Source of the DNA: a virus
Taxonomy: Duplodnaviria > Caudoviricetes
Virus record (IMG/VR): IMGVR_UViG_2905444465_000001
Span: 1-64,000 of that record
DNA length: 64,000 bases
Strand: one strand, 5' to 3'
This document shows positions 5,141-32,780 of the stretch, piece by piece; the first letter of the stretch is position 1, and each line of letters opens with the position of its first letter. A program made the position numbers and the translations under genes. Below the pieces are notes generated by a model. The model was given only the letters and a program-made list of their open reading frames with translations. It was not told where the DNA came from and did no database searches.

Positions 5141-5455
5141 CTATATCATCTGAAAATGTCTCAAAGCATCCTCAATTGCCTTCTCCTTCTCAGCCGGGCA
5201 CTTTGGCTGCCTAGCATCTTCACTCTTCGGAAGATTGAAATTCTCCCTCATATCAAGTCCATGCTTTGCCTTTACCTGCGCAATATACAGACTTGATACC
5301 TTGTATCCGGTCTGTTCCTTCACATAGTCCTTAATCGCTTCGTATGTGGCTCCCTTCTTAAATCTGGACATATCCATATTTGCGAGAGACATTTCAACCT
5401 TTACTTTCTGAGAGTCGATTATACCCTTGGAAAGCAAGACAACCGTCTCAACATG
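5141..5455 (-). pseudogene. rlmD: Detached 3' end of 23S rRNA (uracil-5)-methyltransferase, with C-terminal extension
   Basis: Reading upstream of the listed ORF gives HVETVVLLSKG, the C-terminal motif of RlmD/RumA; the 5' part of the gene is not adjacent. Confidence 0.8.
5442..5452. repeat. att core ACCGTCTCAAC (left boundary of the phage-derived island)
   Basis: Identical 11-mer at 31132-31142; both encode VETV of RlmD on the minus strand. Confidence 0.8.
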
Positions 5456-5535
5456 GCTCGATAGGTCCGGATTGATGTCGGTTATCTGGAACCTATCCAG
5501 ACTAATATGGTTTGCACCAAAATATCTCCGTTTGT

Positions 5536-5595
5536 TTACGGAAACATATCAACAAATTCTGTAGAAAAAATATCTTGATACATTCTGCTATCCAT
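5536..5595 (-). CDS. Putative 19-aa peptide MDSRMYQDIFSTEFVDMFP
   Basis: ATG to TAA with GAGGT 12 nt upstream and a consensus promoter just upstream; ends in an RlmD-like VDMFP. It may be incidental. Confidence 0.3.
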   Translation of the reverse strand: MDSRMYQDIFSTEFVDMFP

Positions 5596-5655
5596 ATCAC
5601 AACCTGAACCTCGTTCGTCCACGGAAAAAGTTCAACTTTTTTATTCGTTTCTACT

Positions 5656-5683
5656 ATTATAGTGATTCAAACATAAAAGTCAA
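5656..5683 (-). promoter_or_regulatory. Near-consensus sigma-A promoter facing out of the island
   Basis: Minus strand TTGACT-N16-TATAAT. Confidence 0.6.
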
Positions 5684-5700
5684 ATTTTGCGAGGACCCGC

Positions 5701-5790
5701 CATCGTCTCAACCTTGTCCGTTCTTCCTACAAAAACAGGTCAACGGCTATTTTTAGCCCTAACTGATGGCCTTGCTTCCATGCACTCGAC
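5701..5790 (-). pseudogene. Degenerate rlmD fragment (fossil att-like sequence)
   Basis: Translates as SLPRSSAWKQGHQLGLKIAVDLF...RTDKVETM with a frame break, resembling RlmD SLARD...GY...AVDMFPRTxHVETV; contains CGTCTCAAC at 5704-5712. Confidence 0.55.
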
Positions 5791-5823
5791 CTTGGCAAGC
5801 TGAAAATTTTAATGGAGATGCTA

Positions 5824-6870
5824 CTACTTCTTCGCATTCTCTTCCAGTTCCAGCATGTATTTATCAAAGTCAGACATGAACAATCTGTCCTGAATAACAC
5901 GATACTTTTCAAATTCAGTCTCAGCTTTTGCCTTGGCAATCTCAGCAGTAATTTTGCCTGCATCCTGAAGGACCTCTCTGTCATCAGCCATCAGGAATAG
6001 ATCCAGTCGCTTTGACCAATCCTCCATCGTCATCGGGATATGACGCTCTGCTCGATCCTCTGCCAGATCCAAATAAGCCGAAACGATACGCTCTAATGAA
6101 CGCATTTCCTTTTCTGAAAGATAATTCTTTGCAACGCTCACATCACTTTTTACAATCTTGCCTTCCGGTGCTTCTGCCCACGTGGTCAGCCCCATATGTG
6201 GCTTATCAGCATCTGCTCGCTCATAAATCAACTCTGCTGCCGTATGTCCGTGAACTGCATAATGCATCTTGTTCTGCACCTTGGCAAAAAACTGCTTTGT
6301 TGTTTTGGCTGTGCGGTCGTAATCAAGAGCTGTAGCATAGATGTCCGTTATTTTCTGATAGAATCTACGCTCAGATAAACGGATCTCACGAATATGCTCA
6401 AGCAAACGATCAAAATATTCTGTTGTAAGCACTGATCCACCATTTTTTAGACGTTCGTCATCCATAACCCAGCCTTTGATGGTGTAGTCCTTGGCAATTT
6501 GATTGACCCATTTACGGAACTGCACCGCACGCTCAGAATTGACCTTGAATCCAACAGCAATGATCATTTGAAGATTATAATGTTTCGTATCACGAGTGAC
6601 CTGGCGTGAACCTTCGGTTTGAACTATCCGGAAATTCCGGATAGTTGCCTCTTCCTCAAGCTCTGAGTCGGAATAAATCTTCTTAATATGCTCATTGATT
6701 GTACGAACATCTACATCATATAGTGTGGCCATCATCTTCTGTGTCAGCCATATATTCTCATCTTCGTAGCGCATCTCAATACTGTCCTGCTGATCACCAA
6801 CAGAGGCAACATAGGTCAGATATTCCGCTGCGCTGGAACGGATGGTTATTTCATCTTTTTTCTTTTTCAA
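5824..6870 (-). CDS. rhuM: RhuM-family (virulence RhuM) DNA-binding protein
   Basis: WLTQKMMATLY, HYNLQMIIAVGFKVNSERAVQFRKW, IRLSERRFYQKITDIYA and KNYLSEKE motifs. Confidence 0.85.
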   Translation of the reverse strand: MKKKKDEITIRSSAAEYLTYVASVGDQQDSIEMRYEDENIWLTQKMMATLYDVDVRTINEHIKKIYSDSELEEEATIRNFRIVQTEGSRQVTRDTKHYNLQMIIAVGFKVNSERAVQFRKWVNQIAKDYTIKGWVMDDERLKNGGSVLTTEYFDRLLEHIREIRLSERRFYQKITDIYATALDYDRTAKTTKQFFAKVQNKMHYAVHGHTAAELIYERADADKPHMGLTTWAEAPEGKIVKSDVSVAKNYLSEKEMRSLERIVSAYLDLAEDRAERHIPMTMEDWSKRLDLFLMADDREVLQDAGKITAEIAKAKAETEFEKYRVIQDRLFMSDFDKYMLELEENAKK

Positions 6871-6884: not shown

Positions 6885-7922
6885 TTATAAATCGAAATGC
6901 GTTTTTGCTATTGTATTTAGCTGTCCTGCTATTTCATCAAATGGTAAATTCAAATCCAGAGTCCTGACAGTAATCTGGTTTCCACTCATCTGATACACAT
7001 TATTCGGATATATCTCTTCATCAGTCTTGGCATACAAAAGCATTCCCGAAACCGTGTGGTCCTTCTCTCTCATTTCATATTCCTTGTTTTTCACATAAGT
7101 AAAAATCTGATAAAGATTGCCTGAATGAAGTGTATGCTTGTCAAACTGCACCTGTGTGCTGTGCTCATAGTACTTTGCGTCAATAATAAGAACTTTCTCA
7201 CCATTTTGGAGCATAATGTCACTTTGCATCACAGGCAACATAGAGTTTTCTTCATCGTCCAGTTGCCAAGGAATCTGTGATGCATTTGCGGTAATCTGAT
7301 TTTTAAACTCTCTCCTGTAATATTCCAGGATGAACTTCTCATACAATCGACACATTCGCTGCTCGTCTAAAAAGTCCATCAACTTGGTATGCCCATTCGA
7401 TTGTGTTTGCAATAGACCCTTTACTACCAGGTAGCATATTGAAATTAGCATACGATAAGTCTGGTTATTTCGATTGTACTGAACATTCCAATTTACCGTA
7501 TACAAATCAATAAAATCCACCTCGCTGAAATACACCATTAACTTTCTAAGATTTTTCTTGCGCTGTTTCGATATATTCGAACGAAGGAGAAGTTCAACTG
7601 TAGATTTGATGATCCGATTCATGATGCTGTTAACCGAAAACTCATCGTATGTACAGATTAGCTGTTTCCGTAACATTGACTGTGTCTTGATAGACTCTGC
7701 AATATCAATCTTTCCTCGCAGAGAAGAGAGCGTCTCCGTCTGCGGAATATATTCTTTGCCAAGTCCTCTCTTTAGCTGAATCGCGATACCTTTTTCTAAG
7801 ATAGCCGCCATCAGCTCGCCAGTATTATTAAATTGTTCTGTGGCTATATTCTTATAACCTTGCTCATTCAATACCTGAAATGCATAGGACAGCATATAAT
7901 AGATGTTTTGAATCGGTATCAC
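6885..7922 (-). CDS. mcrC: McrC subunit of a modification-dependent restriction endonuclease
   Basis: MIPIQNIYYMLSYA start, PD-(D/E)xK core IIDAKYY, NLYQIFTY; coupled to mcrB. Confidence 0.92.
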   Translation of the reverse strand: MIPIQNIYYMLSYAFQVLNEQGYKNIATEQFNNTGELMAAILEKGIAIQLKRGLGKEYIPQTETLSSLRGKIDIAESIKTQSMLRKQLICTYDEFSVNSIMNRIIKSTVELLLRSNISKQRKKNLRKLMVYFSEVDFIDLYTVNWNVQYNRNNQTYRMLISICYLVVKGLLQTQSNGHTKLMDFLDEQRMCRLYEKFILEYYRREFKNQITANASQIPWQLDDEENSMLPVMQSDIMLQNGEKVLIIDAKYYEHSTQVQFDKHTLHSGNLYQIFTYVKNKEYEMREKDHTVSGMLLYAKTDEEIYPNNVYQMSGNQITVRTLDLNLPFDEIAGQLNTIAKTHFDL

Positions 7923-10405
7923 TTAATCGTACTCCTTAGATTTTCGCTCCAATCTTTCACCTTCATAGGTTCATCAAACCAGTATTCTTTCAATAAAGGT
8001 ATCAGCTCATATTCCACAACACCATAAAGCCAACTATCGTCAATTGTATCAGGCTGTAAATTACAGAAGTAGCTGTGACCAATACAGAACCCTTCGCCCA
8101 GAGATTCATCGACGGAAATCTCTCTATTCAAACTCTCGACGCAACTGATCAGTTTGTTGAACTTCTCATTATCTAATGCCATGCGATACTCACGGAACCC
8201 CGGAGTCTCAAACCCCGGCTTGATATCAAAGAAAGCAAACCTTCTACGAAGTGCATAATCCAGCATAGCCAGGCTTCTGTCTGCAGTATTCATCATGCCA
8301 ATAATATAGACATTCTTCGGCACTGCAAACTTTTCATCCGAATACAGAAGCTGTAGCGCATTTCCTCGCTTATCATTTTCAATCAGCATAAACAGCTCGC
8401 CAAAGATCTTACTCAGATTGCCACGATTGATTTCATCTATGATAAAGAAATACTCATTATCACTATCTACCTCGGCCTTCTTGCAGAAATTGTAGAATGC
8501 CCCCTTCTTCAGTTCAAATCCTGTAGCAGATGGACGAAAGCCCATAATAAAATCTTCATAGGAATAACTCTGATGGAACTGTACCATCATGACACGCTCT
8601 ACATCTTTTACACCCATCATAGAATAGGCCAAGCGCTTAGCAACATATGTTTTTCCTACTCCTGGTGCACCCTGCAAGATAATATTTTTCTTATTTCTAA
8701 GCAAACCAACTAATCTGGTATAATTATCTTCAGACATGTACACATCATCCAGGAAATTTTCTGCCGTGTACTCCGGATAGGCAATTTCCTGCTCATCATC
8801 TACAATATCGTCTTCCTCAAACAAAGCCTTAATTTCTTGTACGAAGTCCCTATATGGCGTAATATTGGTCAGAGCCTTCTGAGGGGACTGATGATTAATT
8901 GTCCAATCGCCCTTGTTCGTCCAATTTACTTTTCTAACATTGGAATATTCATCTGTGCGATCTGCATCATATTCATAATCAGACTCAACAATTCCTTTGC
9001 CAAGAATTCCATTATTGCCTTTTTTTACGTATACCACGTCGCCAATCTTAATATCATGTACAAACTGCCAAGTAGCATGAGCTGAATTCTTATAGGAACT
9101 GCTATCACCGTATTCTTTCTTCATCTGCTGTTTCATTTCATCCTTAGAGCTGAATACTCCAAGATCTCCAATCTCACCCCAGCCCAGTAGCATATAACCG
9201 TTCTTATAACACTCTTCCCATTTATCAGCGTTTTGTCCCGGAGCATAAATCCAGTAATGAACTGTATCGACATCACTATCTGCAAGAGCATCGCTATCAT
9301 TCGTTTTCTTACTCTTTGCATCAGAGACACCTTTTTTGAAAATATCAGATGCCATCTCCGCTGTTAATTCCACTGATTTGCCTGCTTCAGTAAGTGTCCA
9401 CACACCTCTTACGCTTTTATCAATATATCCCGCTCCAACGAGATAGTTTCTGGCGAAAGCAACTTCATTTTCAAATTTGTTAACCTTCGTTTTCCCTCTG
9501 GTTTCGCTTACTATCTCATCCGACAAATGCTCGTTTTCTATAATTTTCTTTCTCGCTTCTACCGGTGTCGCAGATCCTCCTAAATCGCGTAACGCCTGTA
9601 GCAATGGCATAAACCACTTAAGAAATTCCGCTTTCGAAGTCTTTTTATCTTTTTCAGCAGCCTTTTCCTGATTGACTTGCTCAGAGATCACCCAGGCCGT
9701 AAAGGATAAATCAGGAAAGTTCTTGTATTCATATTCACCTGCATCCAGAGCTTTCTTACACAAATCTTTTATTTCAAGATAATCTGCAGCATACGGCACT
9801 TTCTTAAGCTTCTTCTCGGCTGCGACAACAAACTCGCCAGGCATATTCTGGGCATCTGCTATAAACCAGCGATTTCTGGAATCCAAGTTGATAAATGTAT
9901 AAGGACGAATCCAATAAAGGCCCATCGTAATATTCCAGCGAATGCAAAGCTGATCATGCACCTTGTCATAAGCCTCGGAGAATTTCTGACGGTTATCTTC
10001 TGTGTCATTGTCAGCCAATGCAAGAGCTACCTCAAACAAACTCCACAAGTTATCAATATCATTTGCTTTTCTATCATCCTTAAATCCATAAAACGTAGCC
10101 TTCAGATTATTAAGAACCGGGATTCCATCAAAATTGCTCGGCACAGTTGCAGCAATTCCAAACTCTGACGCTATCCCGTTAAGAATAGCAATTCTATTAG
10201 CATTTGTTATTCCCTTGTTAAATGTGCCAAAGATGGTAAACGGATCAATATCAACAATCGCATCACCACTTTCAAGTTTCGGAACGCTAATTCCAACAGT
10301 GTCATACACCGCATATATTTTCTGAATAAGAGCCTTTCTATCAGTTTTGAAAGGAAGAAGCTTAGTAGCAAACTCTGTATAAAAATCTATCCAATCGTAT
10401 TGCAT
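7919..10405 (-). CDS. mcrB: McrB-family AAA+ GTPase with long multi-domain N-terminus (unknown domain, Mrr_N-like wHTH, EVE/PUA-like)
   Basis: GAPGVGKT, IIDEINRGN and MNTADRS in the C-terminal third; about 550 aa of extra N-terminal domains. Confidence 0.9.
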   Translation of the reverse strand: MQYDWIDFYTEFATKLLPFKTDRKALIQKIYAVYDTVGISVPKLESGDAIVDIDPFTIFGTFNKGITNANRIAILNGIASEFGIAATVPSNFDGIPVLNNLKATFYGFKDDRKANDIDNLWSLFEVALALADNDTEDNRQKFSEAYDKVHDQLCIRWNITMGLYWIRPYTFINLDSRNRWFIADAQNMPGEFVVAAEKKLKKVPYAADYLEIKDLCKKALDAGEYEYKNFPDLSFTAWVISEQVNQEKAAEKDKKTSKAEFLKWFMPLLQALRDLGGSATPVEARKKIIENEHLSDEIVSETRGKTKVNKFENEVAFARNYLVGAGYIDKSVRGVWTLTEAGKSVELTAEMASDIFKKGVSDAKSKKTNDSDALADSDVDTVHYWIYAPGQNADKWEECYKNGYMLLGWGEIGDLGVFSSKDEMKQQMKKEYGDSSSYKNSAHATWQFVHDIKIGDVVYVKKGNNGILGKGIVESDYEYDADRTDEYSNVRKVNWTNKGDWTINHQSPQKALTNITPYRDFVQEIKALFEEDDIVDDEQEIAYPEYTAENFLDDVYMSEDNYTRLVGLLRNKKNIILQGAPGVGKTYVAKRLAYSMMGVKDVERVMMVQFHQSYSYEDFIMGFRPSATGFELKKGAFYNFCKKAEVDSDNEYFFIIDEINRGNLSKIFGELFMLIENDKRGNALQLLYSDEKFAVPKNVYIIGMMNTADRSLAMLDYALRRRFAFFDIKPGFETPGFREYRMALDNEKFNKLISCVESLNREISVDESLGEGFCIGHSYFCNLQPDTIDDSWLYGVVEYELIPLLKEYWFDEPMKVKDWSENLRSTIK

Positions 10406-10654
10406 TTACATCACACCTCCATTACTTTTTCCTCCATACGAAACCAGCACTTCTGCCACCATACTCAGTTCCGTTTCAGATATGAATTGATAGAGTTCCT
10501 CTTCTTTCTATGTCTCTATATTATCTATCCAAAGCTCACACTGGCAAATTGCCGTTCTGATTGAGAAATCATAATTATACTGGTAAACAGGAATTATGAA
10601 ACGCGTCCTAAAGCCTTCCATTTATTCTATTAAACCATATTCTGAATCCGTCAT
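10406..10654 (-). pseudogene. Internally deleted DUF262 (GmrSD-like) relic
   Basis: One frame reads MTDSEYGLIE*MEGFRTRFIIPVYQYNYDF...YGGKSNGGVM*; FIIPVYQxNY is the DUF262 N-terminal motif; two internal stops; the final stop abuts the mcrB ATG. Confidence 0.6.
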
Positions 10655-10673
10655 TTCACATCAATCCATCCTC

Positions 10674-13229
10674 TTATTGAAGATCGGGATCGCTCCCCAG
10701 AGGAGTAATTCCGTTTTCTTTAAGCATTTCATTTATTTCATAAATTGAATTCTCTGCACAGGCTCCCATTACGCATTGATAAACGTATCCTTCGCCCTTC
10801 AATGAATTTAATTTAAAGTCCGTTTTACCAAGAAACATTTCAGCCTCCGGCAGTGGCAGCTTTAGTCCTACGCATAACGCCAGAACTGTCTGTACAGATG
10901 TTGGATACTCTTCATCATTTCTCAAACGCTGGATGGTCTTTTCTCCTACAAGCGAACGGTCTGCTAACTGTTTATTTGAGAGCTTTCTTTCTTTTTGTAA
11001 AGCTACCAGCGTTTCGGCAAAGGAACCGGGATATCTTCGCAGGGCTTCTGACCGGCGCTTGGCGTTCTGAATCTGGTCGAGTAGCGTTCGGTTATGCGCG
11101 TTTAGTTCAAAGGAATACTCAACCTGATTTTCAACAGGAGCGGCGTTCCGCATGAACTGCGTATAATACTTTGCCCCTTGATATTTCGATTGATAGCTAT
11201 ACCCCTTTGAGAAAACAACACAGCACTCATCCATGTGCGTGAGTGCATATTCTGACAGTGTCGCATTTCCGGCCTGATCCCTCGCTATATATTTCTCATT
11301 GTTAAGAACGAGGTGACGATCTGTAAAAACGAACTGGCCGCTGTCAATCAGTTTCTTAAACTCGCGGTCGAAACAATAAGCTTTAAACAAATCGGCATAA
11401 GGAATGGTGAATGTCTGATTCCTATCCAAGGCACCTGCTTCAAATGAATATCCACGAACATACTGACCATCCACAAACGGATATGCACCTTCGGCTTTGG
11501 AATACCCCAGATCCATCAAACGAACCTTTGCGGCCTGTCTTGACACATCGAACAGCTCCGCCAGTTCATCAATGACATTCTCATAGGCTGTAATGCTCGC
11601 ATCATCAACCCCTCCATAAGTTGCAAGAAGCTGATTTGCCTTCAAGCACGTCGTTTTTGCGGGCATCAAGATTTTCTGAGCAACGCCTTTGGCTTGCCAC
11701 TCCATCCAGTCTACAGCCTTCCATTTATTTGAATCAGTGTTGTTTGCAGCTATTTGGCACTGGATAGCCCTTCCAAGATTATCGTTAGCACCTATCATTT
11801 TCATCAACACATGATATGGCTGATGACGGTGCCAGTGAAAACACTCATGTGCCAGCGTAGTACGCTTTGTTCCTACAGATCTCTCATAGGAAACACGCGG
11901 ATCAAGGTATACAGTTCCGCGTTTAGCATTGCGAATTGTAATCTTCCGGTGCTTATCGAGAACATTACCGTTATCAAATATGATTGTCCCAAAATAAGTA
12001 AGATCATCCGATAGAGGTACATCCTCGATAACATGTAACTTCATATCGCTGGCTATCGTCTCGATTGGAACTCTCATCGGTTTATCCAACGCATCCGGAC
12101 AATACCTTGTCAGGAATTTTTCAGTCTCGTCTTCAAACTGGTCGCGAGAGATAATAGGTACAAGCTCTCCGGACAGGTGGTCATTATCAGATTCCTCTTG
12201 CGGCTCACAGTTACCAACAGACATGATTCGGAACCCGCTCATATCAATGCCAAGAGTGACCTGGCAATGAATCTTAAGCCAGCGCTCATTAAAATATCCC
12301 TTGTGAGAAGCGGACGGCATTTCGACATCGCATGATGCAATTACATCGAATGCAATCATGCCATCTTCTGGCTGTTCAATATGGATAACATTCTCGATTT
12401 CCATATCAACGACCGACAGCCTTTTCGTGTCACCAGAACGTTCCTCTTGAATATAAGCTATGGCCGCATCCCGTATATCGTCATAACGAGAGTGGTCGAT
12501 CAGTTTCTGCAGTGGGCTTTCATCCTGTGCTTCATAGTAATCCAGCCTGATGTCATTGAGTTCTTTACGAATTTCGCGCCAATTAGGCATGCACTTATCC
12601 ATGTGAGCGATAAATGTAGCGTCATGCTTTCTTGTGATTAAATGTGTAAGCTCATGTAAAATAATATAGTCAAGGCAGGCATACGGTTTCTGGGCGAGCT
12701 GCAGGTTGAACCACAGCTTCTTTTTACCCGTACTGCAGGCCCCCCATTTTGTAACCATATATTTTGTTTGCCAAGAATCACATTTAAGTCCTGTCTGCGC
12801 CTCCCACTTAGGCAGACGCTTTTCTATTTCTTCCTTCAGAATCTTTCGATATTCTTCTTTCACATAAGCATCTCGCTGTTTCACGGTACTCTTGGCACTC
12901 ATGGATAGAACAATATTTTGATTCTGAATCTCGAAACTGTTCTTTTGATTGTCAGGCTTAAAGATAAGAAAGTACTGCTTTCCCCATATATACATCGTCT
13001 CACCTGAAACATACTGCCGCTTCGATGCTCTTGGCTGATCCTGAAATTGCGCGATAGCCTTCTTGATAAAGCCCAGCTGAGTTCTGGCATAAGCCTCTAT
13101 AGCTTTATCGTCCACGGATAAAGGCGCAGAAATTACCACATGTCCATCCGGCGGCTTCACCTGAAGGTGCATATTTTTTATATTCTTTTTTTGCACATCA
13201 ATCGGGATGCCGGAAATGACAATGCGCAT
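10674..13229 (-). CDS. Fusion protein: YgjP/DUF45 (M48-like) metallopeptidase + ImmA/IrrE-like metallopeptidase + XRE HTH
   Basis: HELTH at about aa 192-196 in a YgjP-like N-terminus (KWGACS...FNLQL); HECFH at about aa 461-465 followed by EWQA...ILMP (IrrE/ImmA pattern); C-terminal HTH (LSNKQLADRSLVGEKTIQRL). Confidence 0.8.
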   Translation of the reverse strand: MRIVISGIPIDVQKKNIKNMHLQVKPPDGHVVISAPLSVDDKAIEAYARTQLGFIKKAIAQFQDQPRASKRQYVSGETMYIWGKQYFLIFKPDNQKNSFEIQNQNIVLSMSAKSTVKQRDAYVKEEYRKILKEEIEKRLPKWEAQTGLKCDSWQTKYMVTKWGACSTGKKKLWFNLQLAQKPYACLDYIILHELTHLITRKHDATFIAHMDKCMPNWREIRKELNDIRLDYYEAQDESPLQKLIDHSRYDDIRDAAIAYIQEERSGDTKRLSVVDMEIENVIHIEQPEDGMIAFDVIASCDVEMPSASHKGYFNERWLKIHCQVTLGIDMSGFRIMSVGNCEPQEESDNDHLSGELVPIISRDQFEDETEKFLTRYCPDALDKPMRVPIETIASDMKLHVIEDVPLSDDLTYFGTIIFDNGNVLDKHRKITIRNAKRGTVYLDPRVSYERSVGTKRTTLAHECFHWHRHQPYHVLMKMIGANDNLGRAIQCQIAANNTDSNKWKAVDWMEWQAKGVAQKILMPAKTTCLKANQLLATYGGVDDASITAYENVIDELAELFDVSRQAAKVRLMDLGYSKAEGAYPFVDGQYVRGYSFEAGALDRNQTFTIPYADLFKAYCFDREFKKLIDSGQFVFTDRHLVLNNEKYIARDQAGNATLSEYALTHMDECCVVFSKGYSYQSKYQGAKYYTQFMRNAAPVENQVEYSFELNAHNRTLLDQIQNAKRRSEALRRYPGSFAETLVALQKERKLSNKQLADRSLVGEKTIQRLRNDEEYPTSVQTVLALCVGLKLPLPEAEMFLGKTDFKLNSLKGEGYVYQCVMGACAENSIYEINEMLKENGITPLGSDPDLQ

Positions 13230-16200
13230 TAAAACTCCTCCTGCTTTTCAATGATCTTATAGATGCGCTCCACTTCAGAGTCATCACCCAAAATCTCATA
13301 GAGTGCTTTCTTTATTCTTCGTATTACTACCTGATTATCTCTGAACCCAAACAGTGCCTGCTTTTTCACAGCTTTGTGAATTCTGATAGCAAGTTCCTCA
13401 TCTTCTCCAGTGTTATCATAAATAGCCATGAGGGCTTTACTCTTGCGAATACTTTCCGAATATTTGTCGTTATCCTCTGGGCAATCAACATCCTTGGCCA
13501 GCTTTATATATTTCTCAAGCATCTCAGCGTAGTCAAGAACTCCCTGCTTACGCTCTTCAATGAGCTTATCAAGGATTTCTGACATCTTTGCATAATAGCG
13601 TGGATTGACTGTGACCTTTTCGATAACCTTCTTACGGATGTTATTCTCGATTGCCTCTGCTGCACCTTCCTTGTGGCCGCTATCACCTTCACCAGTAAGT
13701 GTCTCACCCTGCTTTGCTACGAAATCCAATAGGGTAAGATCATCAAAATCGCCAATCTTCTCGGCATCTGCGGCCGTAATGTAGTTATCGATCATCTTTC
13801 TCATATCAGGTTCATATGCCTTCAAATCAAGAAAGTCTCCACTGGCCGTACCGATAGTTTTCTTCAACTCGATGTAGAAAGTGACCTTCTTATCATATTC
13901 ATTCAATTTGCCAGATGAGATGTCATCAATCAGATATGGTTTTGCTTCCGCGAAGGCTCTGATAAGACTGCTCACAAGACGATAGAGTTTTTCTCTTAGG
14001 CGTGCATAAATCTCGTCGCTCTCCTCAGACTGTCCAGAAACGCCACAGAAATAATGAATGTACTGGATCTCTCCACAAGGTTCCTCGACGCCTTCACAGA
14101 GTTCCTCGACAGCATCATACACTTCCTCAAAATAGGATACCGTAGCATCATGGCGATCTTTGACAAGTCCTTTTACATCCTCCGGATCATATCCTTCAAA
14201 AGCGCCAGAAGTATAGTCCTTCATTGCAGTCTGGAGCTGTCCAAACAACTGCTTGTAATCCACGATATAGCCAAAGTCCTTAGTATCATCATCCAGACGA
14301 TTAACCCGGCAGATCGCCTGGAAAAGGCCGTGGTCTTGCATTCTTTTGTCAATATAGAGATAGGTGCATGGAGGCGCATCAAATCCAGTGAGAAGCTTGT
14401 CCACGACGATGAGGAGCTTCATATTCGCAGGCTCCTCTACGAATTTGCGCTTTGCTTCCTTTTCAAATTCCTCCACCTTGGCTTGAACCGATCCCGCATT
14501 CGGAAGATCAGATGAATCGAGTCCCAGCATCTTCAGATACGTCTCGTATTTAAGGAAGGTTTCGGTATCATCCTCGTCGCTGACGGTATCAGTTCGCAGT
14601 TCTCCCTTGTTCGGTGTATAGGAAGATATGATGGCGCACTTTTTAAAGCCCATCTGCTGGAAAATTTCATAATACTTACAGGCCGTAGGAATACCATCGG
14701 CTACAAGAATCGCATTGCCGTTTCCATCCATCAGACGCGGCTTCATATTAAAGTCCTGAATGATATCCCATGCCACCTTTTCAAGACGCGAGCGGGAGCT
14801 ATACACCTTCTGCATCGTGCCCCACTTCTCCTTGAGCTTTGCCTTTGCACGAGAGGAAAGGCCTCTGGTCTTTACGTCGAACCACTGGTCCACTCGATCC
14901 TGTGAAGACAAATCCTGTGGAACATCGCGGTATTCATAACGAAGATCCAGAACAACACCGTCGGCCACGCCTTCGTTATACTTGTAAGCGTGGATATATG
15001 TACCAAAAACCTCAATGCTGATCTTCTTATCCCTTTTCAGCAGTGGAGTGCCCGTAAAGCCTATAAATACAGCATTCGGCATGATGGTCTTCATTGCCGT
15101 ATGAAGCTTACCAGACTGTGTTCTGTGGCATTCGTCAACAAACACCACAAGATTTCCTTTTGCCTCGAAATTGGCAGGGAGGGACGCTTTCAGCTCTTCT
15201 ATGTACTTGTCATAGTCATTCTCTGTCGCTTCACCGCCACGACGTCCAAACTTATGCACCAGCGAGCAAATCAACGAATCATCATATACATTCAGGCGAT
15301 TCAGCAAATCCTTACCGCTCTTGGTTCGAGCAATATTCTCATCCACGCCAGTGAATGTTTTTTCTATCTGCTCATCAAGTTCATCTCGGTCTGTCACGAT
15401 AAGGACACGGGCATTAAGCTCTGCCCAATGTGTCAAAATCCACTTTGCAAGCCATACCATTGTCAGCGTTTTTCCGGAGCCCTGTGTATGCCAAAGGATA
15501 CCACCCAACGGTTTATCCGGTTCTCTGTTCGGATTGTGAAGCTCCGTTCTCAGATTAGTAAGCCTCTGCTGGGTACGCTTGATACCAAAATACTGATTGT
15601 ACCGGCATACTTTTTTGATGCCTTTATCAAAGACAACAAAATTCATGATAAGGTCAATAAAACGTTCCTTATCGAACATGGCATATATCTGCTTCAGGAG
15701 TTTATTCTCTATGCCTTCGCAGGTTTTACTGATACGGACATCGACCGGATCACGCTCTTCTTCATGTTCTTTGAATCCGTCATCCTTCCACTCCATATAA
15801 AACTTCTCTCCGGTCAGGAGCGTGCCATAGCGCAGGCCTTCTGATTCGTTTCCAGCTACGCAAAATTGCATTGTAGAAAAGAATCCCTGTATGAATGAAT
15901 TTTTCTGGTTTGTCAGATTCTGGCGGATGCCTTCTGAAACAGAGATACTGCTTCGCTTCAGCTCGATTACAGCAACAGCAACACCGTTCAGATAAACAAC
16001 AAGATCTGGTCTCTTTTCTGACTGCTCAACGACCGTCACTTCCTCAGCAATAGCAAAGTCATTGTTCAAAGGGTTTTCCTCATCAACAAGTTGCACAGTC
16101 ACCGAAGACTTTTCAGGACTCTCGCTCACCGGAATACCATACTTTAAACGAGAATATACAGTTTTGTTGGCGTCATATAACCCACGTGAGAGATTACCCG

Positions 16201-21633: not shown

Positions 21634-21642
21634 TATGAATGG

Positions 21643-21668: not shown

Positions 21669-21776
21669 TTTTTCTTTTCAAAAAATTTTTATAACTTTTC
21701 GGCCAAACAGCCATCTCACCTCCATTGAGTAGTGTAAGGCGAAACAAAACGACCTACAGAAAGCGAGGTGAACACC

Positions 21777-21899
21777 GTGAATCAGACCTTTCACAACAGA
21801 AGAGATACTGACGTAGAAGTAATTGCTACTCTCACAGCAATCAGTCAGGTATCCGCAAGAATGGCGAAGAATCTTAGACTCATCGCCGCACAGAGATAA
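21777..21899 (+). pseudogene. Small phage gene, probably truncated by a nonsense codon
   Basis: GTG start after GAGGTG; the frame stays open for 28 codons past TAA 21897-21899 (SKEGGTTNVKNERYGYDHRR...). Confidence 0.4.
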
Positions 21900-21921
21900 T
21901 CCAAGGAAGGAGGAACAACAA

Positions 21922-22242: not shown

Positions 22243-22243
22243 T

Positions 22244-23948: not shown

Positions 23949-23963
23949 TGGAGGTAACAAACT

Positions 23964-24152
23964 ATGGAGACAATCATGATTAGCACAATTCTTGTAAACA
24001 TCTGTATCGGCTGCTTCGCTTGCGTCGGTCTTACTACTGCAATCTCTATGATGCAGAGTATCATCAACGACCATAAACGTGAAAAGCGTGAGCAGGAAAA
24101 GGACAAGCGTGACCTCGAATACCACGAAAAGCGCATGAAAGACTGTAAGTAA
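23964..24152 (+). CDS. Small phage membrane protein, hypothetical
   Basis: GGAGG RBS, one hydrophobic helix and a charged tail; followed by a hairpin at about 24164-24190. Confidence 0.6.
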   Translation: METIMISTILVNICIGCFACVGLTTAISMMQSIINDHKREKREQEKDKRDLEYHEKRMKDCK

Positions 24153-24217
24153 CTTATCAAACTGCTGGCGGTGGGCTCACTACCGCCAGCACATTTTCTG
24201 ACAAAAGGAGACAATCT

Positions 24218-24402
24218 ATGAATGAATTTGCAGAGATCTTAAATCTATTTATTGCTAATGTCATTGCCTATACCTTTTTTGCGGCGGTATATGGCTTCAT
24301 CATCTACAACGCAGGAAAAATCATTTTTACCTTATTCGTTATGCGGTATACCATATTCGCCGTGACATCAATAAATACAAATCCAATAAAGATAAACAGT
24401 AA
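24218..24402 (+). pseudogene. Small phage membrane gene with probable 1-bp frameshift in a T-run
   Basis: Adding one T after ATCATTTTT gives ...KIIFYLIRYAVYHIRRDINKYKSNKDKQ* ending just before a hairpin. Confidence 0.45.
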
Positions 24403-24456
24403 CACGGCAGGCGGCAGGGATTTCTCTGCTGCCTGTTTTGTAGAAAGGACAATCTC

Positions 24457-25762
24457 ATGAAAACACTTAACCATCGTATTTGATGTTGCTGCCGATATGG
24501 TGCGTATGTGTCCTGCACTGAACCGACGAGTAAAAATTCTTGCTTCCCAGAAGCGTATTGTCTACCAACCGACCAATAGCTTCTATCAGGTACTGTCTGC
24601 TGAGGCTTACTCAAAGCATGGTTTTATCATTCACGGTGTCGTATTCGATGAGCTACATACTCAGCCCAACCGAAAGCTCTTTGATGTTATGACCAAGGGC
24701 TCCGGCGACGCAAGAATGCAACCACTCTACTTTCTTATCACTACCGCCGGAACAGATACCAACAGTATCTGCTATGAAACACATCAAAAAGCCAAGGACA
24801 TCTTGGAAGGTAGAAAGATAGATCCAACCTTCTATCCTGTCATCTATGGCGCCGATGAAACCGATGACTGGACAGACCCGGAGGTTTGGAAGAAAGCAAA
24901 TCCTTCTCTTGGTATCACAGTCGGCATTGATAAAGTCGAAGCAGCCTGTGAATCTGCAAAACAGAATCCCGGCGAGGAGAATTCCTTCAGACAGCTACGA
25001 CTTAACCAGTGGGTCAAGCAGGCAGTTCGTTGGATGCCAATGGAGAAATGGGATGCCTGCTCGTTCAAGGTTAATGAAGAATCCTTAGAGGGTCGTGTCT
25101 GTTACGGTGGTCTGGATCTTTCCTCCACCACAGATATTACAGCCTTCGTGCTGGTATTTCCTCCACTTGATGAAGATGACAAGTTCTGCATCCTTCCGTA
25201 CTTCTGGATACCGGAAGATACGCTAGATCTTCGAGTAAGGCGAGATCATGTTCCTTACGATGTCTGGGAACGACAAGGATTTCTGGAAACCACAGAAGGA
25301 AACGTTGTCCACTACGGCTATATCGAGAAATTCATCGAGCGTCTTAGAGAACGCTTCAATATTCGTGAGATTGCCTTTGACCGCTGGGGAGCTGTTCAAA
25401 TGGTACAGAACTTAGAAGGTATGGGCTTTACTGTTGTTCCGTTCGGTCAGGGATTTAAGGATATGTCTCCACCGACAAAAGAACTCATGAAGCTGACGTT
25501 GGAGCAAAAGCTGGCCCACGGTGGTCATCCGGTGCTTCGCTGGATGATGGATAACATTTATATCCGCACTGATCCTGCCGGCAATATAAAGGCAGACAAA
25601 GAAAAATCCACAGAGAAAATCGACGGAGCTGTTGCCACCATCATGGGCCTTGACCGTGCGATCCGCTGTGGAAACAATACCGGTGCTTCTGTCTACGATG
25701 AAGAGGCATTTTATTCATATAAAAATGGAGCCCTTGTTTTCACACAAAAACTCCATTCCTAG
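24457..25762 (+). pseudogene. terL: 5'-truncated phage terminase large subunit joined to a 13-nt stub of the next early gene (MKTL, probably DNA polymerase)
   Basis: Walker B GVVFDELH, ITTAG, nuclease motifs GGLDLSST and KIDGAVA; no Walker A. The terminase frame begins mid-gene at 24470 (TIVFDVAADMVR). A 1-bp loss near the 3' end removes the expected ERGILFI* ending. Confidence 0.85.
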
Positions 25763-26092
25763 TTACTTATTTGAATTTATAATTCCTTCGATGTCACGAC
25801 CACCGTAAAATATTCGTGCTACTGTAACTGCCCTTTCCTCGTCATCAACCAGATAATACACGATAAAGTTGTCAACCGGAAGCTGATGCATTTTCATCGA
25901 ATGCCAAGGTTCCCAGTCAACTAACGCATGGCGAGCTGGCATGAAATCCAGTGAACGAACTTCTTTTCGGATACGGCCCAACTGAGCGGTAGCAGTTTCC
26001 GGAACGAGGAGTTCATTCGCAATATACAAATAAATTTCACGTAAATCATCAAGTGCATCTACAGAATAGCCGACCTTATAGCTATCCATCAT
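25763..26092 (-). CDS. RelE/ParE-family toxin
   Basis: YSVDALDDLREIYLYIA...YIVYY..D....VTVARIFYGGRD pattern; ATGA overlap with the antitoxin. Confidence 0.85.
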   Translation of the reverse strand: MMDSYKVGYSVDALDDLREIYLYIANELLVPETATAQLGRIRKEVRSLDFMPARHALVDWEPWHSMKMHQLPVDNFIVYYLVDDEERAVTVARIFYGGRDIEGIINSNK

Positions 26093-26394
26093 ATGCCAAA
26101 CTCCTTTGCAAGTGCCGCATCGACTTCATCTGCAGAATATACCTTTCCTGCTTTGATGGAATCAACACCCTTCTGGAGTTCTGCATCAAGCTGTTCTCTG
26201 GTCATTGCGCCAACATCTAATGGCTTAGAAGAAGGAAGTTTCAGTTCAAATGGCATCCCCTTTTTCAGTACAATCTGGCTATAAAGCATCTGAATTGCAC
26301 TGGATGGAGAAATGCCAAGCTGAGAAAGAATGCTCTCAGCATTATCCTTGAGATTGGTATCTATTCTTGCATAAACAGCGGATGTATTTGCCAT
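26089..26394 (-). CDS. RelB/DinJ-family antitoxin
   Basis: VYARIDTNLKDNAESILSQLGISPSSAIQMLYSQI...GMPFEL; start MANTS follows AGGAGG. Confidence 0.88.
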   Translation of the reverse strand: MANTSAVYARIDTNLKDNAESILSQLGISPSSAIQMLYSQIVLKKGMPFELKLPSSKPLDVGAMTREQLDAELQKGVDSIKAGKVYSADEVDAALAKEFGI

Positions 26395-26514
26395 AGTATC
26401 GCCTCCTTTTTCTTTATTATATTCGCTTTTGCTTGCAATTGCAAGTATTTGCATAGATTATTTTATGACAAAACTTTGAATTTTATACGACCTTTACGGC
26501 AGAAAGGAATATTT

Positions 26515-27447
26515 ATGGGATTCTTATCAGGACTGTTTCACTCAAGAGACAAGCCCACCAACAGCACCAATGGCAGTGCCTATCGCTTTCTCTTTGGTGG
26601 AAGCAACTCCGACAAAGCCGTCAATGAAAGAAGCGCCATGCAGATGACTGCAGTTTATGCCTGCGTCAGGATTCTTTCTGAGGTTGACCAGTACATGGCT
26701 CCGGTTCATCACGAAGCGATTATCAGTCATTCAGACTTCGACGCAGCGAATGCTCTGGTTAATCAACGAGCCGCAGAAAAAGGTATTGAAAAAGGCAGTG
26801 ATAAATATCAGCAACGTTATGCCTTCTCCGGGAAAATAATCTGTGGAGAATGTGGCGACACCTTCAAGCGCAGGATACACTCTTGCACCACATACAAGTA
26901 TGTCGCCTGGACCTGCAACACGCACTTGAAGAATAAGAAAGCGTGTCTTATGAAATATATAAGAGATGATGAGATAAAAGCTGCATTCATTACAATGCTA
27001 AACAAGCTCATTTATGGCTATCGCTTGATACTTACTCCTTATCTCAAAGTACTTGAAAACTCATCTGGCGACGAGGCCATTCAACGCATTCAGCACTTGG
27101 AGCAACTCATCGCTCAAAACAGTGAGCAGCGAGAAACATTAACCAAGCTGATGGCACAGGGCTATATCGACCAGATTCTCTATAATCAAGAAACAAATGC
27201 ACTCCTCCTGCAGGCAGAGACATATCGCTCTGACATTGAAGCAATTACCATCGGAATGACCGGCGACGCAGCCAAGGTTACGGAAACGAATCTTCTGCTA
27301 CACTTTGTGTCCCATACTGATATGCTTACAGCCTACAGCGAGGAGCTTTTTGAAAACTACACAGACCACATTGAAGTCATAAGCAGAAATGAAATCAGGT
27401 TTGTTATGAAATGCGCTCTGACATTCACAGAAAGGATTGGTGATTAG
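26515..27447 (+). CDS. In-frame chimera: phage portal N-terminus (56 aa) + C-terminal half of a large serine recombinase
   Basis: MGFLSGLF...SAMQMTAVYACVRILSE (portal start) then VDQY...HHEAIIS...FSGKIICGECG...WTC (recombinase and zinc ribbon); junction at about 26682. Confidence 0.8.
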   Translation: MGFLSGLFHSRDKPTNSTNGSAYRFLFGGSNSDKAVNERSAMQMTAVYACVRILSEVDQYMAPVHHEAIISHSDFDAANALVNQRAAEKGIEKGSDKYQQRYAFSGKIICGECGDTFKRRIHSCTTYKYVAWTCNTHLKNKKACLMKYIRDDEIKAAFITMLNKLIYGYRLILTPYLKVLENSSGDEAIQRIQHLEQLIAQNSEQRETLTKLMAQGYIDQILYNQETNALLLQAETYRSDIEAITIGMTGDAAKVTETNLLLHFVSHTDMLTAYSEELFENYTDHIEVISRNEIRFVMKCALTFTERIGD

Positions 27448-27863
27448 ATGGGCCATACACCATTTGGCTATAAAATAGAAAACGGTATCGCAGTTATCGA
27501 TCAACCGGCTGCAGATAAGCTCAGACAACTCTATAAAAATTATCTGAGTGGTATGTCTTTATCAAAGGCTGCATCTGCTGCCGAAATTAAAACTTATCAC
27601 GGCACCGCTAAACGATTGATGGAAAACGCCCATTATCTTGGAGACAGTTTCTATCCTGCCATTATCGATGAAGATACCTATCAAAAAGCACAAGAAGAAC
27701 GCAAACGTCGAGCCACAGCACTCGGACGAAATAATAAGCAAACACAAATGAGGAAGCTACAGATACCTACCCATTTCCATATGGGTGAGGTTGCTGCCCT
27801 TTATGACAATCCCGTCAAGCAGGCAGAATATCTGTACAGCCTCATAGAAAGCGAGAGTAAATA

Positions 27864-27864
<1 letters not shown>
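27448..27864 (+). CDS. Small recombinase-domain protein (middle gene of the three-gene recombinase module)
   Basis: [11 protein letters not shown]...YLG..FYPAII recombinase-domain pattern without a catalytic domain. Confidence 0.75.
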
Positions 27865-29432
<1,568 letters not shown>

Positions 29433-29448
29433 GCCCCATAGACGCACG

Positions 29449-29480
29449 AAACCCTCCTGACCGTGATGGTCGGGAGGGTT
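29449..29480. terminator. Bidirectional intrinsic terminator
   Basis: AACCCTCCTGACC-GTGAT-GGTCGGGAGGGTT between convergent genes. Confidence 0.75.
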
Positions 29481-29485
29481 ATTTT

Positions 29486-30286
29486 TTATTTACTCCAAGG
29501 TAAAAATTCCGAAATAAAATCTGGTATCTGATTAACATTAAGTATCCATGAAACCACTATTATTATGGCAATAATCAAGCATGCAATATTCAGTGCTTTG
29601 ACATTGAATAGTCTTGCGTTTTTTTCGTTTATAGTAAAAATGAATTTAACCAAAATATAAATCACATTAATAAGAACAAACGCCAAAAAGTCAACAACCA
29701 GCAACAATCGAAAAACACTAACCGCAGAAATATTCTGTAAAACAGATGTTGAGAATGTAATTCCCCCAACAAAAGCAAGAACAATAGAAGCGAAAATACC
29801 AAGTATGGAGATGTATTCTTTTTCAACGCCTTTTATCTGTTTTTGCAAGTTTTCTTTCGCTTCTTCTATGCTATCTGCAAAAATGTTATTGACATTTTCA
29901 ATCTGATGTAACGCTAGTTGAAAATGATCATAGATTTTTACAATCATTTTTTTACAGTCTTCATCTACCGAATTATCATCATCAAGAGAATATAACAATA
30001 GTTTTTCTAAATTTGTAGCAAAAACTCCTCGTTGAGACATTTCTAACGAATAAACATAATTGCTGATTTCCGAATAAAGAATCCTGTCCAACTTATTTGT
30101 TGATGTTATATATGATGCGATATTCTCAACCGTTTTCTGCGGATCATACTTCTGAGTATTCATGGATAATGCTTTGCAAATTCCATTGATTTTTCTTTTA
30201 GTGTTATTAAATTTTTTCGATTGCTCTAATGACATTGTTGTATTGTCAGTCGTCCGGAGCAATACATCTAAATTGTCATCAGCCAT
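29486..30286 (-). CDS. Hypothetical protein with 3 C-terminal TM helices (candidate PanT toxin)
   Basis: Overlaps the Panacea gene by 8 nt; soluble helical N-terminus followed by hydrophobic segments. Confidence 0.7.
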   Translation of the reverse strand: MADDNLDVLLRTTDNTTMSLEQSKKFNNTKRKINGICKALSMNTQKYDPQKTVENIASYITSTNKLDRILYSEISNYVYSLEMSQRGVFATNLEKLLLYSLDDDNSVDEDCKKMIVKIYDHFQLALHQIENVNNIFADSIEEAKENLQKQIKGVEKEYISILGIFASIVLAFVGGITFSTSVLQNISAVSVFRLLLVVDFLAFVLINVIYILVKFIFTINEKNARLFNVKALNIACLIIAIIIVVSWILNVNQIPDFISEFLPWSK

Positions 30287-30767
30287 TAAAATACTCCCTT
30301 ATTGCATTAATTGTAATCTCGTTATTTTGATATGGAACATAAGCATCAATCCATGGTGACTGTCTATGGGTTAATGATACAAGATCTGTTGCTGAATAAT
30401 CTGCAAATTTGTCTACAACTTTTTCTATAAGAGCTTTGTCTTCATCTGTAATCGTAGTGTCCTCAAACTCAACCCTTTTAGCATTCCATATATCATTTTC
30501 ATCAAACATAATGTATGATTCTATTGTAGGTATATCTCCACTTCCGTACTGCTTATATTCATGGTAAGCTTCTGGAACAACAGGTCCAAAATCCCATGCT
30601 TCTATCTTCTCATCAAAACAAGGAGTATGGTCTTTCTTTTTTGTTAAAAAATAAGCTTGGATAAAATAAAGCACTTTCTGAAGTTTTAAATTTGAAATTC
30701 CATAGTCATGTTCATTGCTATAATTAATTACATGACGACACACATCTAAAACCTTATAGCTCATCAT
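30279..30767 (-). CDS. Panacea-domain (DUF4065/SocA/GepA) antitoxin
   Basis: ISNLKLQKVLYFIQAY, FDEKIEAWDFGPVVPEAY and LVSLTHRQSPW motifs. Confidence 0.9.
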   Translation of the reverse strand: MMSYKVLDVCRHVINYSNEHDYGISNLKLQKVLYFIQAYFLTKKKDHTPCFDEKIEAWDFGPVVPEAYHEYKQYGSGDIPTIESYIMFDENDIWNAKRVEFEDTTITDEDKALIEKVVDKFADYSATDLVSLTHRQSPWIDAYVPYQNNEITINAIREYFNG

Positions 30768-31103
30768 CTCGACCTCCTTCCTCTGTAAATGTATATTATA
30801 TCACAATCGCTAAGTTTTTGGTGAACTTTTTGATTTTTTTTCTGTCATCTATCCCACTGCCAAGTCTGCCCCTTAGTATCGAGTGGCTTAAACTGCGGTC
30901 GGCTCTGACAACAATCCTGGTGCCACAACCGCTGACATCTAATCCACAGCCTAAACCCTACCGCTATTCTCCGTCTACTCAACTTCTCTCCAATCAGACT
31001 GTAAAGTAGATATGTTTCCATACAAGAAAACCGAGCTTTTCGCAAGGTTCCTCTGATGATGCTCACCTCGCAAAAAGCCCGGAAATACGCCACTTTTTGG
31101 TTC

Positions 31104-32780
31104 TTATTTATCTTTTCTTGACAGCAAACATACCGTCTCAACGGTATTACCTTTTTCCCACAAAAGCCGCCTTACCTCTTGACCATCCCGATATATTGGG
31201 AAATTAAACTCTATCGACTTCAAAGGCTGCTCTGACTCCCCGTTTGGATATATCTGAATTTCTTTTATGAGATAAGTAATAAGGCTTTTCTTTTCCTCGT
31301 CACTTATTATATCATAGAGCTTTCCGAAATTCAGCATAAGCTTGTAAATATTGTCCAGAGTGATTGTTTCCATTTCGATAGAACTTTTTCTCAGCTTTGC
31401 ATCTTCAATCCGTTCTTCCAACTCTACAATCGTATCATACAAGGCATCAAGTCTTAAAGTCATATCGTGAATTTTTCTTTCTCTGAAGCGGGTATCAACA
31501 GGCAGATTATCAATTTCTCTCTCCAGACGTGCTTTGTTCAAATCAACTTCTTTCAGTTTACTCTCGTAATTGGCAAGTTCCTTATCAATAGCTGTTGTAT
31601 CGGTCTGTACGCCAATACGCTTTTCAATCTCTTTTGCAAAATACTTATCGCTTACCAATTCCTTAACAGCTTCAATTACAAGTGGCTCAATATCTGTTTT
31701 TCTCAGAGATGCCTTATAGTCACAATGATGTCCTCGTTCCTGCTTATTTCTGCCGCAAATATAATAGTAAACCTCTTTGTATGTGCCATCTTTATTTGTC
31801 CAAGCGTGTTTGTTCGTATACATTGAACTTCCACAAAGGGGACACTTTAATATCCCCGTCAAAAGGTGTGACCTATCCTTACCGATTTTGGATGGCTGTT
31901 TAATTCCTGTTGCCATACGCTTTGCGTGAACCTTTTGCCACAATTCCTCGCTGATAATTCCTTCATGTTGTCCATCTTCCAGAATGTAATCCTCTGCATG
32001 AACCTGCTTATATTCATTTTTTGTACCTTTTACCTTTTCTCGTGTTCTTCTGCCATAAGCAATCTTTCCACAATAAACAGGATTGTCTAATATCAACCGT
32101 ATAAAATGACTGCTCCAAGTTTCCAATGTGCCGTTCTGACGAGGTATCTTCTTTATACCTTGAAGATTAAGATATTTTGCTACTCCGCCAAGTCCTATAT
32201 CAGAATTAGCAAATTTATCAAATATAATTCTGATTGCTTCAGCTTCCGTTTCTTCTATCAAGAGCTGATTGTCTTTCAGATAATATCCGTATGGTGCAAA
32301 TCCACCATTCCACCCACCTTGTCGTGCTTTTTCTCTCCGTCCATTCATTGTCTGTTCAATGATATTTTCTCTTTCTATTTCTGCAACCGCAGACAAAACA
32401 GAGATTAAAAGTTTTCCACTTGTCTGTGACGAGTCAATTCCTTCTTCAATACAAATAAGATTTATTCCATAAGATTGTACAAACTCTAATGAATTTAGAA
32501 TATCCGCTGCATTTCTTCCGAAACGGGAAAGTTTATAAACCAGAATATAGTCTATCTCCAATCCGTTTTTTATATCGGAAAGCATTTTCTTAAATGCAGG
32601 TCGTCCTTCAATAGATTTTCCTGATTTACCTGCATCCTCATAGATACCGACAATTTCCATTTCTTCTCGGTCAGCAAATCGTTTTAATCCGTTTTTTTGT
32701 CCTTCAAGGCTATATCCGTCTACCTGCATTTCGGTACTTACTCTCGGATACAGGACACATTTCTTTCCTTCTCTGTTCAT
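31104..32780 (-). CDS. Large serine integrase of the ICE; ORF reads through att into an RlmD-like tail
   Basis: LYPRVST catalytic Ser, VYKLSRFGRN, zinc ribbon CPLCG; ends ...WEKGNTVETVCLLSRKDK. Confidence 0.93.
   Translation of the reverse strand: MNREGKKCVLYPRVSTEMQVDGYSLEGQKNGLKRFADREEMEIVGIYEDAGKSGKSIEGRPAFKKMLSDIKNGLEIDYILVYKLSRFGRNAADILNSLEFVQSYGINLICIEEGIDSSQTSGKLLISVLSAVAEIERENIIEQTMNGRREKARQGGWNGGFAPYGYYLKDNQLLIEETEAEAIRIIFDKFANSDIGLGGVAKYLNLQGIKKIPRQNGTLETWSSHFIRLILDNPVYCGKIAYGRRTREKVKGTKNEYKQVHAEDYILEDGQHEGIISEELWQKVHAKRMATGIKQPSKIGKDRSHLLTGILKCPLCGSSMYTNKHAWTNKDGTYKEVYYYICGRNKQERGHHCDYKASLRKTDIEPLVIEAVKELVSDKYFAKEIEKRIGVQTDTTAIDKELANYESKLKEVDLNKARLEREIDNLPVDTRFRERKIHDMTLRLDALYDTIVELEERIEDAKLRKSSIEMETITLDNIYKLMLNFGKLYDIISDEEKKSLITYLIKEIQIYPNGESEQPLKSIEFNFPIYRDGQEVRRLLWEKGNTVETVCLLSRKDK
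31132..31142. repeat. att core ACCGTCTCAAC (junction between island and ICE)
   Basis: Identical to 5442-5452. Confidence 0.8.

Follow-up and report, generated by a model that had tools for sequence, protein, structure and literature searches.

A probable, recently inactivated Ca. Heliusvirales prophage with intact defence genes, in tandem with a conjugative element at the 3' end of rlmD

The first 64 kb of the 89.7-kb IMG/VR "virus" record IMGVR_UViG_2905444465_000001, hereafter the window, contains a 25.7-kb element (positions 5453-31142) in which broken phage genes lie beside defence genes. Does this element represent a prophage that selection has pared down to a mobile or satellite-like defence island, or a prophage in ordinary decay? 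The best reading of our comparisons is ordinary, recent prophage decay that left the defence and toxin-antitoxin (TA) cargo intact, which is a known decay pattern and not a new kind of element. The element is very likely a recently inactivated temperate siphophage of the Candidatus (Ca.) Heliusvirales type, located at the 3' end of rlmD in tandem with an integrative and conjugative element (ICE) that shares its attachment (att) core.

The phage block and its lesions

The element consists of a minus-strand arm at 5.8-20.3 kb and a plus-strand phage block at 20.9-29.4 kb. Its nearest named phage is NatCom_35866 (PV036449.1), a 64.8-kb member of Ca. Heliusvirales, and a closer relative is the 43.8-kb IMG/VR contig G001, with 94% DNA identity over three collinear blocks. 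Megablast of 20300-31200 against a phage collection gave the large terminase subunit TerL as its sole match; the relatives were resolved by finer blastn and by tblastn. The small lesions were checked against both NatCom_35866 and G001. The features of the block are as follows.

20374-20568, minus strand: small gene, 46% identical to the NatCom_35866 "excisionase and transcriptional regulator" gene
21768-21986, plus strand: small early gene (72 aa) with a nonsense TAA at 21897-21899 (CAA in G001, Q in NatCom_35866)
22244-23383, plus strand: DUF2800 / PD-(D/E)XK exonuclease pseudogene with a TGA at 23048-23050 (TGG in G001)
23352-23948, plus strand: intact Enc34-type single-stranded DNA-binding protein (SSB; PF10991)
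24218-24460, plus strand: small gene with a 1-nt frameshift at 24323/4 (T6 in G001 to T5; the G001 open reading frame (ORF) has 61 aa)
24469-24470, no strand: junction of deletion 1, with 12.1 kb gone (G001 12203-24302), from DNA polymerase codon 5 to TerL codon 116
24470-25762, plus strand: TerL fragment without the N-terminal ATPase part and with a frameshift at 25700/1 (Pfam TerL_nuclease and only the tail of TerL_ATPase)
26449-27447, plus strand: in-frame chimera of portal codons 1-78 and residues ~267-521 of serine recombinase 1 (rec1), without the catalytic domain
26679-26682, no strand: junction of deletion 2, with 15.7 kb gone (G001 26519-42228), from portal codon 78 to rec1 codon 266
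27448-27864, plus strand: 138-aa recombinase-domain-like ORF conserved in the module, of the same length in G001 (weak PF07508 and CcrA matches)
27864-29432, plus strand: full-length large serine recombinase 2 (rec2), 522 aa (PF00239, PF07508, PF13408)

Alignment to G001 resolves two clean deletions. Window 20875-24469 corresponds to G001 8612-12202 and window 24469-26682 to G001 24303-26518, with microhomology of 1 nt at deletion 1 and 4 nt (TGAG) at deletion 2. Deletion 2 removed the head, tail and lysis genes together with the catalytic half of rec1, and its two sides are joined in frame. In tblastn, the NatCom_35866 portal matches over residues 5-70 only, after which the frame passes directly into the C-terminal half of the recombinase. 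The element has lost its replication genes and all structural genes, together with the stretch preceding TerL in which a small terminase would be expected.

The four small lesions are of two kinds: both nonsense codons are substitutions and both frameshifts are homopolymer contractions. The exonuclease frame retains its similarity to the NatCom_35866 exonuclease past the stop in tblastn. The TerL frameshift at 25700/1 is a 1-nt loss (A3 to A2 relative to G001) that replaces the last 6 TerL residues. An earlier note on this DNA had listed lesions at 21897, 23048, about 24330, 24469/70, the TerL 3' end and about 26682, and all of them hold against G001 and NatCom_35866. Its broader observation, that lytic functions were lost with the defence and TA genes intact, is likewise borne out by alignment to intact phages.

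The resemblance to Ca. Heliusvirales (NatCom_35866; PMC11283538) covers gene order, amino acid identity of the exonuclease (~82%), SSB (90%) and TerL (92.5%, over the stop-to-stop frame from residue 143 on), an accessory arm on the minus strand that carries McrBC homologues, and a right end with serine recombinases. The order has nine marker genes (PMC11283538). Unlike its intact relatives, the element has only one of the nine intact (SSB) and is missing about 28 kb in total relative to G001; a nonsense codon interrupts the exonuclease, both TerL and portal are truncated, and the remaining five markers had no tblastn match in the window. TerL by itself would not support a functional phage either, with its first 116 codons deleted and its 3' end frameshifted. 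Judged from these alignments, descent from the Ca. Heliusvirales lineage is clear, but function as a phage is not.

Could the deletions and stops be products of misassembly or sequencing error in an intact prophage? The homopolymer context of both frameshifts would fit such errors. However, each junction is a single clean join with microhomology, one of them in frame, the two nonsense codons are substitutions, and comparable remnants are found in further assemblies, one of them a complete Roseburia faecis chromosome. We therefore regard an artefact as very improbable.

The alignments thus show that two microhomology-mediated deletions took away the stretch from replication to the TerL N-terminus and that from portal to lysis with the catalytic half of rec1, and that four point lesions lie in the phage genes left over. 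The intact remainder consists of self-contained accessory units, also present in intact relatives, namely RhuM, McrBC, a type I restriction-modification (R-M) system with its YgjP fusion, ParE/RelB and a Panacea pair. The element would now act as a fixed defence island in which R-M and McrBC are predicted to cut incoming DNA and the TA pairs would penalise loss of their own DNA.

The defence cargo and its retention

The accessory genes lie mostly in the minus-strand arm, with the two TA-like pairs further right.

5824-6870, minus strand: RhuM-family protein, full length (PADLOC candidate defence PDC-S05; Pfam PF13310, E 1e-114)
6885-7922, minus strand: McrC, full length (NCBIfam NF007277, 436.8 bits against a cut-off of 338; residues 1-343 on profile positions 6-352 of 353)
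7919-10405, minus strand: McrB-type AAA+ protein with an N-terminal Mrr_N domain (PF07728 and PF14338)
10674-13229, minus strand: 851-aa fusion of a YgjP-like metallopeptidase, an M78 (ImmA-like) region and a helix-turn-helix, companion of hsdR
13229-16408, minus strand: HsdR, type I restriction subunit, full length (PADLOC REase_I, residues 2-1056 on profile positions 3-1030 of 1034; TIGR00348)
16424-17665, minus strand: HsdS specificity subunit (PADLOC Specificity_I, residues 29-412 on profile positions 49-438 of 443)
17659-20337, minus strand: HsdM methyltransferase, long form of 892 aa (PADLOC MTase_I PDLC03031, residues 7-890 on profile positions 7-833 of 834)
25763-26454, minus strand: intact ParE toxin and RelB antitoxin pair (PF05016 and PF04221)
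29486-30767, minus strand: Panacea (SocA-like) antitoxin (PF13274) with an overlapping 266-aa partner without assigned family

Intactness was checked for RhuM, McrC, McrB, HsdR, HsdS, HsdM, ParE, RelB, Panacea, its 266-aa partner and the 522-aa recombinase. All are full length, with profiles covered end to end or the usual cluster length matched, and the earlier view that HsdMSR, McrBC, RhuM and both TA-like pairs are intact stands. For the R-M operon, completeness was judged by Pfam, PADLOC and NCBIfam coverage: HsdR, HsdS and HsdM are all full length in one operon, which makes up a predicted type I system. McrC and the McrB AAA+ GTPase together make up an McrBC system, in which the McrB profile match is confined to the C-terminal region (residues 545-823; 319.6 bits, below the 637-bit equivalog cut-off). 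On RhuM, PDC-S05 covers residues 2-346 (profile 2-338 of 342). Promoter-like sites of relB lie at 26416-26471, and almost no portal stub is needed for them.

The YgjP fusion accompanies HsdMSR in several Heliusvirales contigs. By exact look-up, this exact protein was found solely on the present record; its 90% cluster has 3681 members, mostly of 851 aa among the members listed. The slot that separates rec2 from the right arm differs in cargo among relatives and is occupied here by the Panacea pair, in L015 by a 236-aa methyltransferase, in L017 by a 549-aa protein without assigned family, and in L008 by 1.6 kb of unrelated sequence.

Was this cargo selectively kept while the phage genes decayed, as the earlier note had proposed? 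The accessory arm of NatCom_35866 carries McrB and McrC homologues, and the same arm in G001 carries HsdM, PIN_12, AAA_15 and an ABC-3C CTD6 protein. The HsdMSR/YgjP block adjoins early genes in other contigs, two of them with full-length portals, and ParE/RelB lies between TerL and portal in intact G001 too. Cargo of these kinds is thus normal for intact relatives, and the remnant did not acquire it specially. Per-gene dN/dS, which the note had suggested as a check, was computed against G001 for broken and intact genes of the phage block. Values for the broken genes (exonuclease 0.10, TerL 0.02, portal stub 0.03) and for the intact ones (SSB 0.06) were in the same range. Since nearly all of the divergence predates the breakage, dN/dS does not separate broken from intact genes. 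The broken genes nevertheless still look constrained (0.02-0.10), so the decay is recent, and the lesion-free state of the cargo therefore weighs less, as there has been little time for the cargo to decay. With relatives carrying the same cargo, equal dN/dS, and the independent remnants L028/L029, which have lost theirs, the case for selection is weakened. Selective retention is unneeded to explain the cargo, and its retention may partly reflect lack of time.

Four points count against ordinary decay as we have described it. The 5.8-kb phage block contains all 4 small lesions of the 25.7-kb element (p ~0.003 if lesions were uniform, a post hoc figure); since this is unlikely under uniformity, some differential constraint is plausible, and the clustering fits differential selection and not pure neutral decay. 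The two frameshifts, both in homopolymers, could be sequencing errors. With intact att repeats and a full-length rec2, excision is possible. Finally, the defence functions are predicted from homology alone.

Integration at rlmD beside a conjugative element

The position of the element bears on whether it can still move. The features at its two ends are listed below.

5141-5452, minus strand: orphan rlmD 3' tail (RumA-type 23S rRNA methyltransferase), severed by insertions (99% identity, RlmD C-terminus)
5430-5452, no strand: left att repeat, core CCGTCTCAAC (family D10; partner 31120-31142)
5453-5823, no strand: left phage arm, non-coding, with an att-like scar CGTCTCAAC at ~5704
30842-31142, no strand: right phage arm and att repeat, giving CLLSRKDK and a stop codon to any gene upstream
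31104-32780, minus strand: ICE large serine recombinase (558 aa), right flank of the element, its last 8 codons supplied by the phage arm

An imperfect 23-nt direct repeat bounds the element (5430-5452 and 31120-31142, core CCGTCTCAAC), with a spacing of 25,690. The translation of 5141-5452 is 99% identical to the final 103 residues of 577-aa PF05958 (RlmD-family) proteins; the insertion point within RlmD lies between HVETV and VLLSK, at codon ~483. Both arms recur in relatives: 5427-6489 is 87% identical to remnant L029, and the right arm is 85-90% identical in L008, L015 and L126, with the L015 and L017 matches ending exactly at 31142. A PF05958 gene adjoins this right arm in L015, where the arm completes rlmD as ...HHVETVCLLSRKDK followed by a stop. 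At a conserved core, the ends of the element thus border on the 3' coding part of rlmD, and these alignments support its assignment as a prophage of an rlmD-integrating lineage. The rlmD site named in the earlier note holds for the left flank, which is the rlmD tail, but on the right the element borders on the ICE recombinase gene at its 3' end.

The ICE recombinase gene and the phage have the VETV att core in common, and in-silico removal of 5453-31142 fuses the 558-aa recombinase gene in frame to the 5141-5452 ORF. The rlmD tail is also fused to several unrelated serine recombinases, for example P0025, which is only 50% identical to the 558-aa protein. The ICE has a conjugation set at 39.5-53.6 kb (a VirB4-like ATPase, coupling protein, relaxase, PrgI, a lysozyme/CHAP protein and a sortase), beyond which lie additional recombinases and a Mob_Pre relaxase; phage DNA is a minority of the 64-kb window. 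No PF05958 match was found in the whole 89.7-kb record, so the 5' part of rlmD lies beyond the ICE(s). The array order is rlmD 5' part, ICE(s), prophage remnant and rlmD tail, a tandem at an rlmD 3' hotspot.

With the remnant absent, the ICE recombinase would lose its phage-derived CLLSRKDK end and read through into the rlmD tail, for a total of ~651 aa. The exact 558-aa form is present on 230 contigs. Because 558-, 654- and 661-aa forms fall in one 90% cluster, the C-terminus varies with whatever adjoins the ICE. Inside the left arm, the second att-like core CGTCTCAAC (~5704; window 5680-5750) looks like an old att scar; its codons in one frame (...GRTDKVETMAG) resemble the recombinase end (...EKGNTVETV), and a tblastn search of 5453-6000 for traces of a recombinase gave nothing significant. 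In L017 (14660-14800), ~17 nt just past the right arm resemble the left arm of this element. The join would read ...LSTHVETVCLMSRKDK and a stop, which fits an attP junction with both arms mimicking rlmD coding sequence.

Is the element still mobile? It could be excised by rec2, or leave with the ICE through the outer att sites, like a cis-mobilisable element (CIME), and be spread by conjugation. For this speak the two intact att repeats, a full-length rec2, the shared VETV core with its in-frame fusion upon removal, and tandem mobile elements at rum, which are known and for some of which transfer has been reported (PMC5053989). A related remnant, L029, also lies beside an ICE-type recombinase. 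The 522-aa form of rec2 is found in L015, L017 and most cluster members listed, and an identical rec2 is carried by 10 other contigs. However, intact relatives have a complete module of rec1, the 138-aa ORF and rec2, and rec1 here has lost residues 1-266 and with them its catalytic domain. Of the two recombinase genes said to keep open frames, rec2 is full length, but the first ORF is the portal-recombinase chimera, and the integration machinery was not fully kept. Moreover, no other record was found with the junctions or the truncated TerL, L028/L029 carry a broken rec2, and the recombinase beside L029 shares only one 269-nt stretch with the present ICE recombinase, at 72% identity, so that it is not the same composite. 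We consider continued mobility unlikely, and autonomous mobility has probably been lost.

A narrower version treats the remnant as a cis-mobilisable passenger of the adjacent ICE. As the rlmD VETV att core serves both, the two might be excised as one unit by the ICE recombinase, which we think improbable. CIMEs beside ICEs (the ICESt1 model, cited in PMC5053989) are likewise defective att-flanked elements that share a core with the neighbouring ICE. They differ in that the passenger here is phage-derived rather than ICE-derived, and its co-excision or spread hypothetical. If the remnant were such a passenger, a phage-derived block of type I R-M, McrBC and RhuM could spread by conjugation.

Other remnants and known systems

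The lineage has at least four further remnants, with different breakpoints (L028/L029, L125, L126 and L131). L028/L029 have lost their cargo back to a truncated RhuM, and a 322-nt deletion breaks their rec2; L125 and L126 carry other internal deletions. The junctions of the present element recur in none of the collections searched. The halves of the chimeric ORF are never contiguous elsewhere in IMG/VR or GTDB representative genomes, exact junction words had 0 matches in JGI metagenomes (two scans) and 0 in IMG/VR, the exact truncated TerL was found on this record alone, and the chimeric ORF and truncated exonuclease, with chosen starts, had no exact match in the protein collection. The survey for shared deletion junctions that the earlier note had suggested thus found none in these collections. 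The remnants show decay that recurs without a pattern and not a conserved reduced architecture.

This bears on whether the element is a phage satellite, that is, a reduced element with integration functions and cargo that hijacks the capsids of a helper Heliusvirales phage. Its small size, retained recombinase, defence cargo and packaging-gene fragments would suit such an element. Satellites of the phage-inducible chromosomal island (PICI) or P4-like type, however, have their own replication genes and genes for helper exploitation or packaging, and here the replication genes, the candidate small-terminase region and all capsid genes are gone. Among the Pfam hits there were no primase, replication-initiator, small-terminase or capsid-related families, and no capsid-remodelling gene is present. 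All that is left is collinear with part of one phage at 94% identity, pseudogenes included, and independent remnants have variable breakpoints. The satellite-like status suggested earlier is accordingly extremely unlikely, and ordinary decay of one prophage accounts better for these features.

Ordinary decay also agrees with what is reported of proviruses in general, in which viral core genes are lost and other genes kept (PMC13626063; PMC8987985). Like those domesticated or defective prophages, the element has lost core genes and retained accessory ones; the difference is that here the loss happened very recently and the broken genes show no sign of relaxed selection. Tandems of an ICE and a prophage (ICE_prophage) have already been described at the streptococcal rum locus (PMC5053989). 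The phi-m46.1 group and its tandems resemble the present case in integration at the 3' end of rum/rlmD, serine recombinases and accretion with a site-sharing ICE. They differ in phage lineage, in host (gut Clostridia here) and in cargo, which is defence here and resistance genes there. Streptococcal phages gave no DNA match in the megablast of 20300-31200 against the phage collection.

No new mechanism is revealed by this locus. It offers a base-resolved example of a widespread gut phage family decaying in place, in which the ancestor type, the junctions and the first point lesions can be identified, a snapshot in which the relics have yet to gain neutral changes. It also indicates that the rlmD 3' end is a landing site common to phages and ICEs in gut Clostridia, as in streptococci. 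The record itself, though filed as a virus, is mostly ICE DNA plus a dead prophage. IMG/VR rates its completeness as a virus at 82%; its actual content is mainly DNA of ICEs or integrative and mobilisable elements, with type IV secretion genes, relaxases, several serine recombinases and the Mob_Pre relaxase.

We also considered whether TA pairs set deletion boundaries, as several remnants keep ParE/RelB with TerL and portal stubs. The idea stands here as a side remark only: the remnants were found with a portal-stub query, which biases TA-pair retention among them, that retention was not used as evidence, and the relB promoter-like sites need hardly any of the stub. One further contig, L130, carries RelB, a ParE cut by the contig end, a portal stub and, ~0.7 kb on, the right arm; with so little phage DNA between stub and arm, it may be another remnant. 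In L131 (9360-10264 of the complete Roseburia faecis JCM 17581 chromosome), a 94-aa ParE (109 aa in relatives), a 119-aa RelB and a 97-aa portal stub lie with no other phage DNA within 10 kb; the toxin looks truncated and the antitoxin kept.

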